From contig JBHLPL010000022.1 in assembly GCA_048939465.1 (NCBI GenBank), positions 1 through 22,160 on the forward strand: a stretch of 22,160 nucleotides of DNA. Reading direction: 5' to 3'. Position 1 is the first letter of the stretch. Each line of letters begins with the position of its first letter. Made by a program: the position numbers and the translations under genes. The notes below the pieces were generated by a model. It was not told the DNA's origin. It made no database searches and saw nothing but the letters and a program-made list of their open reading frames with translations. Shown one piece after another: positions 12,013-18,919 of the stretch. The stretch comes from Promethearchaeota archaeon. Its GTDB lineage: Archaea; Asgardarchaeota; Odinarchaeia; Odinarchaeales; JBHLKK01.

Positions 12013-12732
12013 ATGGGTAGCAAGACTAGAGTCTTAAGGATACTTGAGCTTTTGGAGAAAGAGTACCCGGACGCCAAGACAGCTCTTCATTATTCTAACA
12101 GCTTGGAGTTACTGATCGCCACCATTCTGTCGGCTCAATGCACGGACAGAAGGGTGAACTTAGTCACAAAGAAACTCTTCAAAAAGTATAGAAGGGCAAA
12201 AGATTATGCTCAAGCTGATCTTAAGGAGCTTGAAGAAGACGTAAGACCAACCGGTTTTTATAGAAACAAGGCTAAGAACATCAAAATGTGCTGTCAGCTC
12301 CTGGTCGAAAAGTTCAATTCTAAGGTTCCGAAAACAATGAAGGAGATTCTTGAACTTCCAGGTGTCGCCAGAAAAACAGCGAATATTGTGCTATCCAACG
12401 CTTATGGTGTTATTGAAGGAATAGCAGTGGATACTCATGTTCGTAGACTTGCCAAGAGGTTGGGACTCACAAAGCATGGAGAACCAAACAAAATCGAGAG
12501 AGATTTGATGGAGGCAGTCCCCAGAGACAGATGGATGAGAATCACAGACCTCTTAATCTTTCACGGTAGAAGAATATGCAGCGCAAGGAAACCACAGTGT
12601 AAGATATGTGTTTTAAACCTGCTTTGTCCTTCTGCCTTCACATTCGACAAGGTTAAGCAAGGAACCAATTTACCTTCTTCTCCGCAAGGAGACCCCGTCC
12701 GAAAGGGTGGAGACGAATTACGAGGAGTTTAA
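12013..12732 (+). CDS. nth: Endonuclease III (Nth), with a 17-aa C-terminal extension read into an inserted element
   Basis: LLIATILSAQCTD, HhH LPGVARKTAN, AVDTHV, FeS loop C..RKPQC..C.L...C. Start inferred at MGSKT. Confidence 0.95.
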   Translation: MGSKTRVLRILELLEKEYPDAKTALHYSNSLELLIATILSAQCTDRRVNLVTKKLFKKYRRAKDYAQADLKELEEDVRPTGFYRNKAKNIKMCCQLLVEKFNSKVPKTMKEILELPGVARKTANIVLSNAYGVIEGIAVDTHVRRLAKRLGLTKHGEPNKIERDLMEAVPRDRWMRITDLLIFHGRRICSARKPQCKICVLNLLCPSAFTFDKVKQGTNLPSSPQGDPVRKGGDELRGV

Positions 12733-12893
12733 ATACTTGTTTTCCAGATAGCCTCAAGGAATTGAGCTGAGGTAACACTCGCCAATTCACAAACAAAGTT
12801 TCAGGGCAGGAACTGCCCGCAGAGCCTGTAAGACATATCCCATTGGGGAATGGATGAAACAGGAAGCTCCATCCGAAGGGTGGGGTAGTTCAC
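12680..12893 (+). mobile_element. Miniature non-autonomous IS200/IS605-family (tnpB-type) element, copy A (214 bp)
   Basis: The left end matches 18561-18615 at 43/55 nt ungapped. Related subterminal hairpins at both ends: CCCCGTCC-GAAA-GGGTGGAG and CTCCATCC-GAA-GGGTGGGG. The right end GGAAG...GGGGTAGTTCAC is typical of tnpB-element right ends. Residual TnpB-tail peptides GQELPAEPV and MKQEAPS. No tnpA or intact tnpB. In silico excision restores the nth stop codon. Confidence 0.78.
12728..12735 (+). promoter_or_regulatory. TATA box inside the left end of element A
   Basis: TTTAAATA, conserved at the same offset in copy B (18609-18615). Confidence 0.6.
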
Positions 12894-12913
12894 AAACAAT
12901 ATCACTCTCAGTT
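12757..12913 (+). ncRNA. Candidate TnpB omegaRNA (scaffold to 12893 plus about 20-nt flank-derived guide AAACAATATCACTCTCAGTT)
   Basis: Lies about 25 nt downstream of the TATA box. Dense pairing: CTCAA-GGAA-TTGAG, GAATTG/CAATTC, GGGCAG-GAA-CTGCCC, GAACTGCCC (12810-12818) with GGGTAGTTC (12883-12891), and the right-end hairpin. omegaRNAs are known to derive from the tnpB 3' end/right end. The 5' boundary is inferred. Confidence 0.5.
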
Positions 12914-12917
12914 TCAG
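12786..12917 (+). repeat. Direct repeat TTCACAAACAA...AGTTTCAG, internal versus right-end junction
   Basis: TTCACAAACAA at 12786-12796 and 12889-12899; AGTTTCAG at 12797-12804 and 12910-12917 (10 extra nt in the downstream copy). Confidence 0.8.
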
Positions 12918-12937
12918 TAAAACAGGGTGAGTAAATA

Positions 12938-13414
12938 ATGACCCAATTGCAGATCGGCCAGAAAGCACCTGATTTCACTCTAACGGACATGAATTTGAAG
13001 CAAAGGAAACTGAAAGACTTTCTCAGTAAGACCGTGGTTCTTGCGTTTTATCCCGGAGCTTTTACTTCAGTTTGCACAAAGGAGATGTGCACATTTAGAG
13101 ACTCAATGACACTGCTGAATAACTTGAACGCCCTAGTAGTAGGAATAAGTGTCAATGATCCATTTACGAATAAGGCTTTCGCTGAAGCCAACAGTTTGAA
13201 CTTCCCCTTGTTAAGCGATTACAACAGGGAAGTAGCTGAAGCTTATGGAATAGCAGATACTGATTTTGCAGGTCTGAAGGGTTACACGGTTGCAAAGCGC
13301 TCGATATTCATTATTGACGATGAAGGTACTATTCGTTATGTGTGGGTATCAGATGATCCCCGTGTAGAACCAGACTACGGAGAGATTGAAGAAATCTTGA
13401 AAAAGATTGGTTAA
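12938..13414 (+). CDS. bcp: Peroxiredoxin, BCP/PrxQ type
   Basis: APDFTL, FYPGAFTSVCTKEMC (PxxxTxxC plus CxxxxC), GISVND, FPLLSD, KRSIFIID. Confidence 0.93.
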   Translation: MTQLQIGQKAPDFTLTDMNLKQRKLKDFLSKTVVLAFYPGAFTSVCTKEMCTFRDSMTLLNNLNALVVGISVNDPFTNKAFAEANSLNFPLLSDYNREVAEAYGIADTDFAGLKGYTVAKRSIFIIDDEGTIRYVWVSDDPRVEPDYGEIEEILKKIG

Positions 13415-13555
13415 GATCAGCCTCTGCAAACTGAAGTCTTTTCCGTTTTTTTCTTGCTGCTATCAAGACCCGAGGACTGTGACATAGGGTCAGAATGTTT
13501 ATAAAACTAAAAGAAAATCCAATCCACAAAAGCTTAAGAAAGCGAGAAAAAGCAT

Positions 13556-13957
13556 ATGGAGGAGGCAGATGGTTTGAGTCCTGAAAAGGAGTTTTCGTTG
13601 GATGAGCTTAATAAACCTAAGGATTGGGAAAGCCTGCCCGATATGGCGAAGAAGCACTTACCTATCATCGAAGCACCAGGAAAAGCAAAAGCCAAAGAAC
13701 CCTTTACGGTCAAGATAAAAGTTGGCGGAATAGATGGCGTGGAACATCCAAATATGTTGGGACACTGGATCAACTGGGTTGCACTTTACGATGGGGATCG
13801 ATTAATATCTCGGATTGAATTTGGCCCAGGAATGTGTGACGGGTATGTTGTGAATATCAGCGTGGCACTGGACAAGACTGCAAAACTTAGGGCGCAGGAG
13901 TTCTGCAACCTACATGGCGTATGGGAAGGAAAAGAAAAGAAGGTCATAATCGAATAG
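13556..13957 (+). CDS. sor: 1Fe superoxide reductase (neelaredoxin type)
   Basis: KHLP, EHPN...HWINW, FCNLHGVW iron ligands; no N-terminal desulforedoxin domain. Confidence 0.9.
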   Translation: MEEADGLSPEKEFSLDELNKPKDWESLPDMAKKHLPIIEAPGKAKAKEPFTVKIKVGGIDGVEHPNMLGHWINWVALYDGDRLISRIEFGPGMCDGYVVNISVALDKTAKLRAQEFCNLHGVWEGKEKKVIIE

Positions 13958-14034
13958 AATCTCGTCATCCGCTGAAGCCGAGGGCTTATGCTAGCTAGGC
14001 ATTGAAAAGAAAACGCGTTTTTTGAGGGAAGGCT

Positions 14035-14547
14035 ATGAGTAAAGTATTGATCTTGATTGATGAAGGGTTCGAGGACTCCGAATTCCTGTATCCCTATTAT
14101 CGGTTTCAGGAAGAAGATTACGAGGTAGATGTTGTGGGTTCAGAAGCCAATCAGATCTACACAGGAAAGCGAGGCGTGCCGATGAAGTCGAACCTTTCGC
14201 CGGATCGTGTAAAAATAGAGGACTACGATGCAGTAATAATACCTGGAGGAAGGGCACCAGATCGAATGCGTTTGAACAAGGCCCTGGTCAGAATTGTCAA
14301 AATGGCTCATGAGAAGGGTAAGGTAATTGCAGCAATATGTCATGGTGCCCAAATGTTGATAGAAGCGGATATCGTGCGTGGAAAGAAGGCAACATGCTGG
14401 TATTCCGTGGCAACGGACCTCAAGAATGCTGGAGCTACATATATCGATGCACCGGTTGTGGTTGATGGGAACTTTGTGACTTCACGCTTCCCTGCAGACC
14501 TACCGAGGTTCTGTCAAGAGACAATAAAGTTGCTGAAAAAGCGATGA
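14035..14547 (+). CDS. pfpI: PfpI/DJ-1 family protein (type 1 glutamine amidotransferase-like)
   Basis: FEDSE, DAVIIPGG.APD.MR, AAICHG, VVVDGNFVTSR.P.DL. Confidence 0.92.
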   Translation: MSKVLILIDEGFEDSEFLYPYYRFQEEDYEVDVVGSEANQIYTGKRGVPMKSNLSPDRVKIEDYDAVIIPGGRAPDRMRLNKALVRIVKMAHEKGKVIAAICHGAQMLIEADIVRGKKATCWYSVATDLKNAGATYIDAPVVVDGNFVTSRFPADLPRFCQETIKLLKKR

Positions 14548-14559
14548 TTCTGCAATTAA

Positions 14560-14582
14560 CTGAACTTTCCTCTTCTTTTTTG
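14560..14582 (+). terminator. Oligo-T terminator after pfpI
   Basis: CTGAACTTTCCTCTTCTTTTTT directly after the stop; a similar tract follows the prx stop (13431-13452). Confidence 0.55.
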
Positions 14583-14781
14583 GGTTTTCTGATTAATGGC
14601 AGGAAGGACCCCTTGCTTCAAGCCAGAAAGTGAAAATCTTCCAACCCTCGATTTGATAATTGCGCCAAAAAAAGAAAGATATTCTGGGACTCCGGTGCGG
14701 TGGTAGTAGGCAAAACAGCTGACTCAGGCTGACAAGAGTGGAAAGCCTTCCGAAGATTCTGTGCCCCTCCAAAGGTGGCGT

Positions 14782-15165
14782 CTATTTCTTCCAGAGTCTA
14801 TGTATATTGCAGTATTCTCTTGCCTTTATCTCTTCGTATTTGCCTGCTTTGAACTCAGCCTCTGGTTTTTGTCCCGGCTTTAACCAAACTCGCTGTACAT
14901 CCCCGTCTGTAATGAGCTCTACGAACTCTATATAGTGCTTTTCCTCCATTGGATGTGGTACACTTCCGACTTTGACCTTAATTACATCTCCAGATTTCTC
15001 GATTACCGGAACATGTTTCTCGTATCCTTTTTCTTCAGTCTGTTCTGCAAGAAGTTCCATCGGCTGCCCGCAACAAACGAGTGTTCCTATTCCAGAATGT
15101 AGCACTTCGACGATATTTCCACAAATGTTGCATCTATAGATTTGTCTCACTGCAGTTTTAGTCAT
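14782..15165 (-). CDS. dfx: Desulfoferrodoxin (2Fe superoxide reductase)
   Basis: [12 protein letters not shown]...LVCCGQPM (desulforedoxin domain), [19 protein letters not shown]. Confidence 0.95.
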
Positions 15166-15183
15166 TCATTCACCCTCCTTTTT

Positions 15184-16365
15184 TCATTTTTTTACAGTCT
15201 CTCCAAGGTTACGCCCCAATCCTCTCAATCTGTCAAGATCGTTCTCATCAGGCACATACCTAACTCTCACACCCTCATACGGTATCTCCCAGCCTAATCC
15301 CCTAAAGATTTCCTCGATCTCATTAACTACCTTTCCTCCCCAGCCATAAGATCCAAAGGCAAAACCGATGCGTTTTCGTGGCCTCAGCCCTTTAAGGTAG
15401 GTTAAGAAAGCACTGACCTTTGGAAATATTCCGTTGTTTAGTGTAGGGGAGCCGACTAAGATGGCCCTAGAGAATAACACGTCAGTCATGACATCCGATA
15501 TATCTGTGGTCTTCAGGCACCTCACGACAACCGGAATTCCAGACTCCTCCAGCCCTTCTCCTAAAGCGTATGCCATTTTTTCTGTTGATCCCCACATTGT
15601 ATCATAGACAATTACTGCCCTCTTCTCGCTCTCAAATGCTGCCCATTTCGTGTAAGCCTCCATTATCTTAGACAAATATGATCTCCAGATTAACCCGTGA
15701 CTTGGGGCTACCATTTCTATGTCTAACGTGGAAAGAGCATCCAAAGCTTTTCTTACTTGGTCCCCGTAAGGAAGAACGATATTTCCGTAATACTTGGCTG
15801 CCTCCTCATGAAGAATATCCCATCCTAACTCATCATCAAAACGCTCAGATGATGCAATATGTTGTCCGAAGGCGTCATTTGGCAGAAGCAGCTTCTCCTC
15901 GGGTATATAGGTTGCCATTGAGTCGGGCCAGTGAACCATCGGGGTAAGGTAAAACTGAAGAGTCCTCTTTCCAATCTTTATTGAATCTCCAGTCTTGACG
16001 ACCCAGAAATTCCAGTCCTTTTTGAAATGATAACGGAGGCCATTCTCACCCTGGGGTGATACAATTACTTTGGCTTGGGGTACTAACTCCAGAATTCTGG
16101 GAAGAGAGCCGGAATGGTCCATTTCTACGTGGTTTGTAACAACGTAATCTATGGTTGAAGGATCGATGAGTTTCTTGATACGAGACAGCATCTCATCAAA
16201 AAGGTAGTGCTTCACCGTGTCTACAAGAACTTTCTTTTCATCCAGAATCAAGTACGCATTGTAGGTGCTGCCGCGCGGAGTAACGTATCCATGAAAACTC
16301 CTCAAATTCCAGTCAATACCCCCTACCCAATGAATATCCGGTTTAACCTGAACAGGATTTGCCAT
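15184..16365 (-). CDS. fprA: Flavodiiron protein (O2/NO reductase)
   Basis: GSTYNAY, NHVEMDHSG, HWPDSM, NDAFGQH, APSHG; flavodoxin domain YDTMWGSTEKMA...GSPTLN...FGSYGW. Confidence 0.95.
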   Translation of the reverse strand: MANPVQVKPDIHWVGGIDWNLRSFHGYVTPRGSTYNAYLILDEKKVLVDTVKHYLFDEMLSRIKKLIDPSTIDYVVTNHVEMDHSGSLPRILELVPQAKVIVSPQGENGLRYHFKKDWNFWVVKTGDSIKIGKRTLQFYLTPMVHWPDSMATYIPEEKLLLPNDAFGQHIASSERFDDELGWDILHEEAAKYYGNIVLPYGDQVRKALDALSTLDIEMVAPSHGLIWRSYLSKIMEAYTKWAAFESEKRAVIVYDTMWGSTEKMAYALGEGLEESGIPVVVRCLKTTDISDVMTDVLFSRAILVGSPTLNNGIFPKVSAFLTYLKGLRPRKRIGFAFGSYGWGGKVVNEIEEIFRGLGWEIPYEGVRVRYVPDENDLDRLRGLGRNLGETVKK

Positions 16366-16541
16366 TACTCTTCGACCTTTTCAAACTCTTCTTTACTTGC
16401 CCCACACTCTGGACATACCCAGTCATCCGGCAACTTCTCAAATGGAGTTCCTGGTGGTATGTCGGCATCGGGATCTCCCTTTGCAGGGTCATAAACATAG
16501 CCACAAACAATACATTGGTATTTTGCCATTTTCTCTGACAT
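16365..16541 (-). CDS. rub: Rubredoxin (58 aa; not in the ORF track)
   Basis: Manual translation [58 protein letters not shown]; CxxC...CxxC; SD GGAGGTGG upstream; TAATG overlap with fprA. Confidence 0.97.
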
Positions 16542-16713
16542 CTTTCGAAACCACCTCCTCTAAAGTGGCATGAATTTATCCCTATCATTTGGACTTTATT
16601 TAAGCTTATCTTACGGATATTTTGAACCGTTTCTTACAGGACTATTCTGGATCTGGCTGTAAACCTACCGTTATTGTCAGGATGCCAATTCTTTTTCCTT
16701 TGAATCCTGTACC

Positions 16714-17163
16714 CTACTCGATTTGTTTCAAAAAGATCTTATATTGCTCTTCGTGGTGCTTTTCTGCCTTAGCAATCGCTCTGAATCTTCGGGCAACCTC
16801 CGGAAAGCCTTCCCTTTCGGCAACTTCGGCAAACTCAGGGTACATTTTTGTGTTTTCATAATTTTCACCGTTAATTGCAGCCTTGAGATTCTGTTTCGTG
16901 CCACCGAGTATTAACGGGGCTTCAACCTTAATCTGGATTACGTTTACGTCATCCTTTGTTGCTTTCTTCACATCATTTATCATTCTGAATAATGCTTTTG
17001 CGTGAGACCTCTCATGTTTTGCGGTCTTAAGGAATCTCTCCGCAACATGCTCGTATCCTTCTGAGTCTGCGACTTCAGCGTATACCGCATATCTGTTTCT
17101 TGCTTGGCTTTCTCCAATGAATGCCTTCACCAGATTCTTAATTGTCTCAGTTTTGTTTGACAT
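16714..17163 (-). CDS. rbr: Rubrerythrin di-iron domain lacking the C-terminal rubredoxin-like domain
   Basis: [50 protein letters not shown]; stops at TAG before the usual CxxC domain. Start inferred at MSNKT. Confidence 0.88.
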
Positions 17164-17185
17164 TCTATATCGCCTTGACTTGCAT

Positions 17186-17239
17186 TTCGGTTCGAATAAT
17201 AGCATTTTGTGGGAAAGGTTTTTAAATGTTTGGTTCGAA
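17186..17239. promoter_or_regulatory. Divergent rbr/lrp promoter: shared TATA flanked by two TTCG-N3-CGAA-like operators
   Basis: TTCGGTTCGAA (17186-17196) and TTTGGTTCGAA (17229-17239) flank TTTTTAAAT (about 17219-17227), which reads as a TATA box on both strands. Confidence 0.55.
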
Positions 17240-17248
17240 ATTAGTACC

Positions 17249-17665
17249 ATGGATGACAGAGACATAATGATAGTGGACACACTGTTGGAGAATGCACGGA
17301 TCCCTAGGGTCAAGATCGCTCAGAAGCTTCACATAAGTGAAGCTGCAGTCCGTAAGAGGATAGCAAGACTAGAGAAAGAGGGAGCTATCTTTGGCTACAG
17401 AGCTATTGTGGACCAAAAGAAAATCGGTTATTTGACTTCTCTCACTGGTGTTGATGTTGCTCCTGAGCATCTGTGGAGAGCCGTTGACAAGCTCAAGAAA
17501 AAGAAGGAAATCAAGTCTATCTTTCTGTCCAGCGGAGATCATACGATAATGATTGAAATCTGGGGCAAGACCGCAGAAGAGCTTGCCAAGATCCACAAAG
17601 ACCTTGAAAGAATTGAGGGAATAGAAAGGATATGTCCCGCCATCATAACTGAAAGGATAAGGTAA
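17249..17665 (+). CDS. lrpA: Lrp/AsnC-family regulator, LrpA/Ptr2-like
   Basis: MDDRD..I...L.ENAR....[20 protein letters not shown]; C-terminal [32 protein letters not shown], recalled as characteristic of Pyrococcus LrpA and Methanocaldococcus Ptr2. Confidence 0.88.
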
Positions 17666-17722
17666 TCGGAAACCTACCTCCGAAGCTGTGCCTCTCCCCG
17701 GGGAAGGGTTGTGAGCAGAGTT

Positions 17723-18025
17723 CTATTTTGTCTCAAAAAACCTTTTGACAGCCTTTATGAAATCGTCTAAGTCATCGACGAAAACTGGAATGCCCATGAA
17801 ACTCAGGAATATTCCAGTGTCCTCAATTCGCTGATCTAGATTGAGTCTTGACAATACAGCGCCAGCAATCATCATAAGCAGCCCGGCCGGATAGTGGTGT
17901 ATTCTCATGCCACCTACGTATATTTTAGGCTTCTTGGGGATGCTATTCCATATTTCGGTCAAAGCAGTACCTGTGAGTAGCCCAAGAATGGCCATCCTTC
18001 TCTTTTTGTTTTCATTCTTACTCAT
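17723..18025 (-). CDS. Small hypothetical membrane protein
   Basis: 100 aa, two to three hydrophobic segments, G.RIHHY..G motif and DDLDD tail. Confidence 0.6.
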   Translation of the reverse strand: MSKNENKKRRMAILGLLTGTALTEIWNSIPKKPKIYVGGMRIHHYPAGLLMMIAGAVLSRLNLDQRIEDTGIFLSFMGIPVFVDDLDDFIKAVKRFFETK

Positions 18026-18066
18026 ACGGATTTATCCTTCATGTTTTCAGCTGCATGAAGATCTGT

Positions 18067-18510
18067 CTATCCACATTTAAAGAACAACCAGGATTTTTCT
18101 TCCTTCTTAAATCTGATTAAGCAATACCTTCCTTTGAGTCTTTTCCCTTCTATGTGAACTATGATCTCGTCCTCTTTCCATTTCTCGGGACGATATCTTC
18201 CGCTGTCCCAAGTCTCCACAGTTCCAGATCCGTATTCGCCCTTAGGTATGATTCCCTGGAAGGACGCATAGTCTATTGGGTGATCTTCTGTCTGTACTGC
18301 CAGTCTCTTGATTCCTTTTACAGTTGGGGGTTCCTTTGGCACTGCCCAGCTCTTCAAAACGCCTTCTCTTTCAAGCCTTAAGTCGTAATGAAGACGTGTA
18401 GCGTCGTGCTTCTGTATGACATAAATATGCCCACTACTCTTTCTCAGCTCCCCTTTGGGCTCCTTGGTCTTCCCAAAATTCCTTTTCTTCCAATACTCTT
18501 CCAAGCTCAT
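18067..18510 (-). CDS. Stand-alone LigD-type DNA 3'-phosphoesterase (PE) domain protein
   Basis: [62 protein letters not shown]. Confidence 0.92.
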
Positions 18511-18560
18511 TACCGAGACTCCTCCTCACTCAAAGCTGAAATATCTTACTGTGTCTTTTT

Positions 18561-18919
18561 CTCCGCAAAAAGACTCCATCCGGGAGGATGGAGATGAATT
18601 GCGTTGTGTTTAAATGATTTTCCAGTAACTTAAACTTTGGGTAAGATGCTCGTAGGAGGAGGGTTGTTCAACGCGTGAGCGCAAAACCTAGTCTGAGAGC
18701 ATAGGTCTTTCGGGCACATCCTGCTCGACATGGCAGCTGGGTATTTGTGGCGCAAATAACAGAGTCAATCAGCCCCAAGGGCGGAAGAGACCTTGCTGTG
18801 CGGCCCTGAACTCGGAGCACAGAGATCTCCCCCTAGGAATCTGAGAAGCCAAAGTGCCCTCAGACGTATGAAACAGGTAGAGCGAGGAAAGCCCCTTTCG
18901 AAAGCTGGGGTAAGTTCGC
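18561..18919 (+). mobile_element. Degenerate IS200/IS605-family (tnpB-type) element, copy B (about 359 bp)
   Basis: Left end homologous to copy A with a perfect hairpin CTCCATCC-GGGA-GGATGGAG (18574-18593) and TATA at 18609-18615. ATGAAACAGG (18868-18877) is shared with copy A. Decayed right end GGAAAGCCCC...GGGGTAAGTTCGC; the right boundary is less certain. Confidence 0.68.
18680..18880 (+). pseudogene. tnpB: Possible heavily decayed tnpB fragments
   Basis: Fragments NLV*EHRSFGHILLD (compare NMVKNHRL..I.D) and CGPELGAQRSPPRNLR (same spacing as CG.ELDRD.NAARNL). Similarity is weak and judged by eye. Confidence 0.35.

Follow-up and report, generated by a model that had tools for sequence, protein, structure and literature searches.

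Two repeat copies in the window (the whole stretch of 22,160 nt that was analysed), here called copy A and copy B, are very probably old, non-autonomous (PATE/MITE-like) derivatives of IS200/IS605 elements in an Asgard (Odinarchaeia-type) archaeon; their left target site is T(T/C)AT, 19 nt from the hairpin foot, and a change of one guide base retargets the family. Both loci that the earlier note had singled out are left ends of such protein-less mini-elements.

Mini-elements in the window and in the host genome

The two copies comprise the following features.

12674..12893, + strand: copy A, a type A protein-less mini-element of 220 nt (14-copy alignment; precisely missing from the genome G001)
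12669..12673, + strand: target/TAM position of copy A, now TTTAC (empty site; the 19-nt spacing to the hairpin foot matches that of IS608)
12674..12692, + strand: left-end linker of copy A, 19 nt, with the guide GAGA at 12689-12692 and, further 5', TCTT at 12676-12679
12693..12712, + strand: left subterminal hairpin of copy A, CCCCGTCC GAAA GGGTGGAG, weakened, with two G-T pairs
12863..12866, + strand: right-end guide of copy A, GAAG
12867..12885, + strand: right subterminal hairpin of copy A, CTCCATCC GAA GGGTGGGG
12889..12893, + strand: right cleavage motif (TEM) of copy A, TTCAC; 12893 is the last base of the element, 8 nt beyond the hairpin foot
18555..18919, + strand: copy B, a type B protein-less mini-element of 365 nt (type-B alignment; missing from the syntenic G001 locus)
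18550..18554, + strand: TAM position of copy B, TGTGT (decayed; type-B consensus TTTAT)
18555..18573, + strand: left-end linker of copy B, with the guide AAGA at 18570-18573 and, further 5', TTTT at 18557-18560; folds into the stem TCTTTTT/AAAAAGA
18574..18593, + strand: left subterminal hairpin of copy B, CTCCATCC GGGA GGATGGAG
18888..18919, + strand: decayed right end of copy B, with guide AAAG, a weak hairpin and TEM TTCGC in place of TTCAC (type-B alignment)

No ORF of at least 80 aa was found inside either copy. Only three listed frames enter the elements: copy A is reached by an extended nth frame, and the 3' portion of copy B by two frames of 107 aa on the reverse strand, both of which start in the flank. 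About 78 left ends of the family were collected from the 1.96-Mb genome (assembly completeness, 91%) by iterated nhmmer, whereas blastn-short recovered too few ends. Type A is present in at least 14 copies, and its homology in the 14-copy alignment begins with CTTCTTCTCC and finishes with GTTCAC; its 3' 95 nt share 94% identity with the right end that follows a tnpB gene on contig C2. Type B is present in about 12 copies, and copy B appears to be old because it shares only 69-74% identity with the others. The left ends of copies A and B are homologous (61 nt aligned, 79% identity). Both ends of the elements carry imperfect subterminal hairpins of the form CTCCRTCC-loop-GGRYGGAG, terminal inverted repeats are absent, and across the family 93% of the hairpin cells are paired, including one compensatory change from G-C to A-T. 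The genome also contains about 18 single-hairpin derivatives of 47 nt; with regard to a RAYT-type reading of these copies, the single Y1 gene in the genome is an IS200-type tnpA. Presence and absence between species suggest that the family has been mobile.

Left boundary and target site

Empty sites in two same-genus genomes, G001 and G002, together with all-copy alignments, placed the left boundary 6 nt 5' of the tetranucleotides that the earlier note had regarded as flanking cleavage sites, directly after T(T/C)AT, with a linker of exactly 19 nt up to the hairpin foot. The left cleavage sites are thus 12670-12673 in copy A and 18551-18554 in copy B, and TCTT and TTTT, which had been placed at 13 nt from the foot, are internal to the elements. 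The orthologous empty site of copy A in G001 reads ...GAGTTTAT/AAAATATATC..., the slash marking the junction; it has TTTAT where copy A has TTTAC, and cleavage and insertion occurred after 12673. Copy A accordingly spans 12674-12893, and its TCTT corresponds to element positions 3-6. For copy B, the comparison with G001 establishes absence only, since divergence of the intergenic flanks prevents placing its ends to the base.

At least seven empty sites were recovered in G001 and G002, all of them exactly 3' of TTAT or TCAT and joined directly to the right flank, and none had a target-site duplication. On sequence alone, each boundary is ambiguous by 1-2 nt (TTTAC versus GTTCAC). The flank profile of the insertions is TT(T/C)AT, with T at position -5 in 32/36 and 19/26 copies. 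The family TAM read from these flanks is TT(T/C)AT, rather than the T(C/T)TT predicted earlier. At the right end, the cleavage site T(C/T)AC lies 8 nt 3' of the hairpin, and the guide-site pairs are GAAG-TCAC (14 copies) and AAAG-TTAC (4 copies). Copy A follows the pairing rule here (GAAG/TCAC), as had been claimed. The class 2 right end, with guide TAAG and site TTAC, is an exception to the IS608 rule, g1-c2 being a T-T combination and not a Watson-Crick pair.

Guide-target covariation

Among the left ends of the genome, the first guide base (g1) tracks the base at position -22: A/T was found 34 times, A/C 6, G/T 8 and G/C 23 (Fisher p = 5.5e-7), so that guide AAGA pairs with TTTAT sites and guide GAGA with TTCAT sites. 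The association was replicated in G001 and G002 (19/3/2/12, p = 2.6e-5). It was weaker in three more distant genomes, where it was significant only with indel-aware registration (14/3/0/5, p = 0.002) and not at a fixed offset (p = 0.17). No association between g1 and any base 5' of position -22 was detected. A left guide shifted by one base (GAAG followed by A) was rejected because it is position -4 that covaries, and not -5. These patterns indicate that a single guide base retargets the family, with AAGA directing insertion to TTTAT and GAGA to TTCAT. About one fifth of the copies break the rule (8 G/T and 6 A/C), which could be due to decay or to tolerance.

The natural retargeting within one family that had been proposed from copies A and B therefore holds genome-wide, but not between these two copies. 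At the true sites they do not covary: copy A has TTAC with GAGA (ancestrally TTAT), and copy B has GTGT with AAGA. The family consensus guide is AAGA, and the GAGA of copy A, an element inserted at TTTAT, is a derived state; either a G-T pair is tolerated there or the guide changed after insertion.

Alternative readings of the two left ends

The earlier note quoted its bases correctly (GAGA 12689-12692, TCTT 12676-12679, AAGA 18570-18573, TTTT 18557-18560, GAAG 12863-12866 and TCAC, which lies at 12890-12893), and its recognition of IS608-type ends and its pairing rule (g1-c2, g2-c1, g4-c4) agree with the literature. It took TCTT and TTTT, 9 nt 5' of the guide, as flanking left cleavage sites, with a C-to-T target change mirroring the G-to-A guide change and a TAM of T(C/T)TT. 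Both window copies do satisfy all three pairs at this offset. However, the empty site in G001 puts these tetranucleotides inside the element, almost every copy has a conserved TTTATC that carries on upstream of them, and the left end preceding the sole tnpA gene, on contig C105, reads TCCT with AAGA at this offset. When guide and flank were tabulated at this offset for all 78 copies, g1-c2 was Watson-Crick in 19% and all three pairs were present in 10/78; the consensus AAGA/TCTT itself fails. With the boundaries lying elsewhere and the further copies lacking the correlation, this specific claim is refuted on the criteria of the earlier note. The tetranucleotides instead sit in a 7-bp stem, TCTTCTT/AAGAAGA, which is within the element and includes the guide. 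In all 28 copies that share one linker type, linker position 4, the c2 of the earlier note, is matched to position 15 (20 C-G, 3 T-A and 5 T-G), whereas it is unpaired with position 16 (g1) in 17/28. Copy B is one of the three T-A cases, and the C-to-T change in it is compensated by G-to-A at the stem partner, position 15, which is not a guide base. Because position 4 tracks position 15 and not g1, the apparently mirrored difference between copies A and B is interpreted as a stem change within the element plus a separate A-to-G in copy A, and not as guide-target covariation. The DNA fold of 18551-18601, at the left end of copy B, has a free energy of -11.1 kcal/mol (z = -3.3).

The differences between the two copies might also be chance substitutions between two fossils of 79% identity, with no structural meaning. 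In this respect, 13/61 aligned bases differ, both changes are transitions, and decay is visible in the left hairpin of copy A and in the TAM and right end of copy B. On the other hand, C-to-T at position 4 is matched by G-to-A at position 15 in 3/3 carriers, and a maintained stem is suggested because this pair is never broken in the 28 copies; chance substitution is consequently considered improbable. Least credible of all is a family of structured non-coding RNAs with no connection to transposition, in which the G-U pairs of copy A would reflect selection at the RNA level. The G-T pairs in the copy A hairpin, the GNRA-like loops and the strongly conserved interior are in line with such a family, but an Rfam scan of the whole window returned no match, the same ends flank tnpA-tnpB and tnpB genes, the copies are precisely present or absent at TT(T/C)AT sites with no duplications, and the covariation of guide and target takes in bases outside the element. 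An omegaRNA role for the interior would be compatible with the mini-transposon explanation and is not a rival of it.

Transposase genes and possible mechanism

The Y1 HUH transposase TnpA (PF01797) has one match in the genome, at C105:1180-1545 (E = 7.5e-37); a TnpB of 427 aa comes next, and after it a right end of the family type. A tnpB-only IS on contig C2 has the same ends as the family. The C105 tnpA is adjoined by a second, divergent hairpin, so that any left end assigned to this element is tentative. In the tnpA loci of Borrarchaeum and Thermoproteota, with which C105 was compared, GAAGT/AAAGT precedes the foot of the tnpA-proximal hairpin; the spacing between site and linker was not consistent across the loci.

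By analogy with IS608 biochemistry, the elements would move as single strands, Y1 (HUH) TnpA would bind the subterminal hairpins, and the tetranucleotide that precedes each hairpin would read the cleavage sites through g1-c2, g2-c1 and g4-c4. A wider scheme is doubtful: that one TnpA services both the TTTAT and TTCAT guide classes, that the 47-nt single-hairpin elements are discrete insertions and an archaeal analogue of REPs, that the left-end stem sequesters the guide and could brake transposition, and that the dichotomy shared by Geobacillus and the Asgard family is a constrained recurrent switch in which only g1/c2 is free.

Comparison with known systems

The pairing rule and geometry were established for IS608 of Helicobacter pylori, in which mutation of the guide resets the target (Barabas 2008; Guynet 2009; He 2011, PMC3201880; Morero 2018, PMC5934647). 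As in IS608, the left cleavage site of the Asgard family is external to the element and precedes the hairpin foot by exactly 19 nt, the guide consists of the last 4 nt before the foot and pairs as g1-c2, g2-c1 and g4-c4 with c3 being A, the target is not duplicated, and it would be resettable via the guide. The two systems differ in their motifs (TTAT/TCAT and TCAC/TTAC in the Asgard family, TTAC and TCAA in IS608), in the distance of the right site from the hairpin foot (8 nt versus 10 nt), in g3 of the left guide (G versus A) and in the hairpin, which has a conserved T-G pair in the Asgard family and an extrahelical T in IS608. The copies also resemble PATEs and stand-alone omegaRNA mini-elements of Haloquadratum and Halanaerobium (PMC3119063, PMC7290912), which are likewise protein-less and multicopy with both subterminal hairpins kept; nothing essential differs.

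The closest parallel is provided by ISGst1-5 and PATEs of Geobacillus stearothermophilus, in which one tnpA serves several IS605 subfamilies and the TAM and TEM covary with left- and right-end DNA guides (TAMs TTTAT and TTCAT, TEM TTCAC; Meers et al. 2023, PMC10055086). The Asgard family has the same TAM pair, the same TEM, the same covariation of guides with these motifs, and protein-less copies. It differs in its host, in its higher number of copies per megabase (about 78 left ends in 2 Mb), in also having the single-hairpin 47-nt derivatives, and in being known here from sequence alone. The mechanism and the TAM pair were thus already published for Geobacillus, and the Asgard case brings no new principle. 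It provides a natural archaeal replicate of guide-directed target choice in IS200/IS605 elements, in which guide A/G tracks target T/C over some 150 insertions in several genomes, and TT(T/C)AT is the TAM expected for any TnpB/omegaRNA of these elements, which helps the annotation of Asgard genomes and the mining of TnpB editors.

Identity of the repeats

The assembly that contains the window as contig C39 (1.96 Mb in 152 contigs, 43% GC) was searched for repeat copies with blastn and iterated nhmmer. At a completeness of 91%, this assembly contained at least 14 full copies of the type of copy A (~220 nt each), ~12 copies of the type of copy B (~345-365 nt), and ~15 copies of a third repeat type (roughly 330 nt), with a total of 78 left-end hairpin loci. 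Copies A and B have a common 61-nt left end (79% identity), and an Rfam scan of the window returned no match. The genome harbored a single Y1 tnpA gene, on contig C105 and followed by a 427-aa tnpB, as well as a tnpB-only element on C2 with the same ends as the repeats, and contigs C55 and C70 terminate in TnpB fragments. Type A and the right end downstream of the C2 tnpB share 94% identity over the final 95 nt of type A. These matching ends, together with the tnpA/tnpB elements, identify the repeats as protein-less IS200/IS605 derivatives (PATE/MITE).

The closest named relatives of TnpA were found in Candidatus Borrarchaeum (86% identity; contigs L077 and L078), and one TnpA in a Thermoproteota MAG was 71% identical, which suggests an IS family that is common to, or exchanged between, archaeal lineages. 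In the sole tnpA element (C105:993-2845, locus L004), TAGTTTAC comes after a left hairpin of the family type, and a degenerate hairpin (GGGAAGT-CCCCCTCC...) occurs ~60 nt further downstream. The hairpin next to tnpA at the Borrarchaeum and Thermoproteota tnpA loci is a homolog of this degenerate one, and with two hairpins the left end of the C105 element is ambiguous.

Element boundaries

In the alignment of 14 type A copies, homology starts at TTTAT / CTTCTTCTCCGCAAGAAGA / CTCCATCC-GAAA-GGRTGGAG and stops after GGAAG / hairpin / TAGTTCAC. The orthologous site in the same-genus genome G001, which lacks copy A, reads ...GGAACGAGTTTAT / AAAATATATCGC..., and these two results therefore define copy A. 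The ends of copy B, also missing from G001, were set by alignment of 12 type B copies.

12674-12893: copy A, inserted 3' of TTTAT (now TTTAC in this genome)
18555-18919: copy B

At least six more empty sites in G001 and G002, another same-genus genome, agreed with the pattern of copy A:

C137:8618: empty after TTAT
C137:2652: empty after TTAT
C23:2364: empty after TCAT
C69:24632: empty after TCAT
Three 47-nt copies: empty sites

T(T/C)AT was retained, and no target duplication was found, at every empty site examined in G001/G002. The cleavage point lies 19 nt from the hairpin foot. Copy A sits within the stop codon of an endonuclease III gene (nth, HhH-GPD; window 12670-12732); the gene ends in TTA TAA in G001, whereas here copy A splits T/AA and the ORF reads 19 extra codons into the element, ending at TAA 12730-12732. 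Near C23:2384, a class 2 element begins with CTAAACCACC, which is similar to the sequence immediately 3' of the site where it inserted (ACAACCACC; TCTTAACCACC in G001), a likeness that is probably due to chance because it is absent from other copies.

Approximately 18 loci were 47-nt single-hairpin elements with a 19-nt left linker containing the guide, one hairpin, and then TAGTTCAC or TAGTTTAC; examples are:

C73:16331-16377
C23:1999-2045
C69:17421-17467
C23:14123-14169

Three of the ~18 loci were precisely missing from relatives, so these elements act as discrete insertions. Alternatively, they may be collapsed copies that arose by recombination between the left and right hairpins, which are near-identical.

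Guide and target covariation

The earlier note had paired the guides of copies A and B with TCTT (12676-12679) and TTTT (18557-18560) as flanking cleavage sites. The bases are as quoted, but the boundaries place both tetranucleotides at element positions 3-6. When all 78 left ends were tabulated at that offset, g1-c2 was Watson-Crick in 19%, and all three proposed pairs held in only 10. The true site/guide combinations are TTAC/GAGA (copy A) and GTGT/AAGA (copy B), and the two copies therefore show no covariation. GAGA in copy A is a derived A-to-G change; most type A copies in the 14-copy alignment have AAGA.

Across the family, every upstream position was compared with g1. The base at -22, which is c2 of the true site, was associated with g1, as were subfamily-marking linker positions; no association was seen 5' of -22. 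Copies from relatives were gathered by a covariance model with the flank excluded.

Table. Guide base g1 against target base c2 at left ends (Fisher p)
This genome, fixed offset -22: A/T 34, A/C 6, G/T 8, G/C 23; 5.5e-7
G001 + G002, fixed offset: A/T 19, A/C 3, G/T 2, G/C 12; 2.6e-5
More distant genomes G014 + G024 + G018, indel-aware: A/T 14, A/C 3, G/T 0, G/C 5; 0.002
G014 + G024 + G018, fixed offset: A/T 15, A/C 1, G/T 4, G/C 2; 0.17, not significant

Because the element does not include the site, every insertion samples a target independently, and the association thus appears to reflect target choice rather than descent. The ~20% of copies that violate the rule represent either decay or G-T tolerance. 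T precedes the tetranucleotide in 32/36 and 19/26 copies; therefore, the motif is TTTAT or TTCAT. Natural retargeting, as previously proposed, is thus upheld as a concept by the family-wide association, but its coordinates and predicted T(C/T)TT TAM are wrong.

Right ends (GAAG-TCAC, n = 14; AAAG-TTAC, n = 4) follow the same logic, with a class 2 exception (TAAG-TTAC, n = 7; e.g., C66, C38, and C25) in which g1-c2 is a non-Watson-Crick T-T. A third subfamily (C10:25653, C144, and C138:96217) had AAAG/TTAC, identical to the IS608 left-end pair.

Internal stem of the linker

In the 28 class 1 copies, which have a pyrimidine-rich 19-nt linker, position 4 (c2 of the earlier note) was unpaired with position 16 (g1) in 17, and it paired with position 15 in all 28 (20 C-G, 3 T-A including copy B, and 5 T-G). 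This pair belongs to a 7-bp stem, T0-A19 through T6-A13 (TCTTCTT/AAGAAGA), conserved in these copies:

12673-12692: linker stem, copy A
18554-18573: linker stem TCTTTTT/AAAAAGA, copy B

The stem takes in the guide and base-pairs it, including c4 with g4, and possibly functions as a guide-sequestering structure. The left-end DNA fold of copy B (linker stem and subterminal hairpin) had an energy of -11.1 kcal/mol (z = -3.3). Other linker classes lacked the stem, which is therefore not family-defining.

Comparison with known systems

In IS608, the guide comprises the 4 nt 5' of the hairpin foot, its first base paired with C-3 and its second with T-4, and the cleavage-to-foot spacing is exactly 19 nt, as in the archaeal family (PMC3201880). 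Site choice in IS608 is established to be guide-directed and is reset by guide mutation. In Geobacillus stearothermophilus, the TAM and TEM covary with DNA guides among ISGst1-5, a system with one tnpA and PATEs, with the TAMs TTTAT (ISGst2) and TTCAT (ISGst5) and the TEM TTCAC (Meers et al., 2023). The motifs of the archaeal family are those of this ISGst system. Guide/target retargeting is thus an already known phenomenon, and the archaeal family adds to the guide-covarying IS605 kind of Geobacillus.
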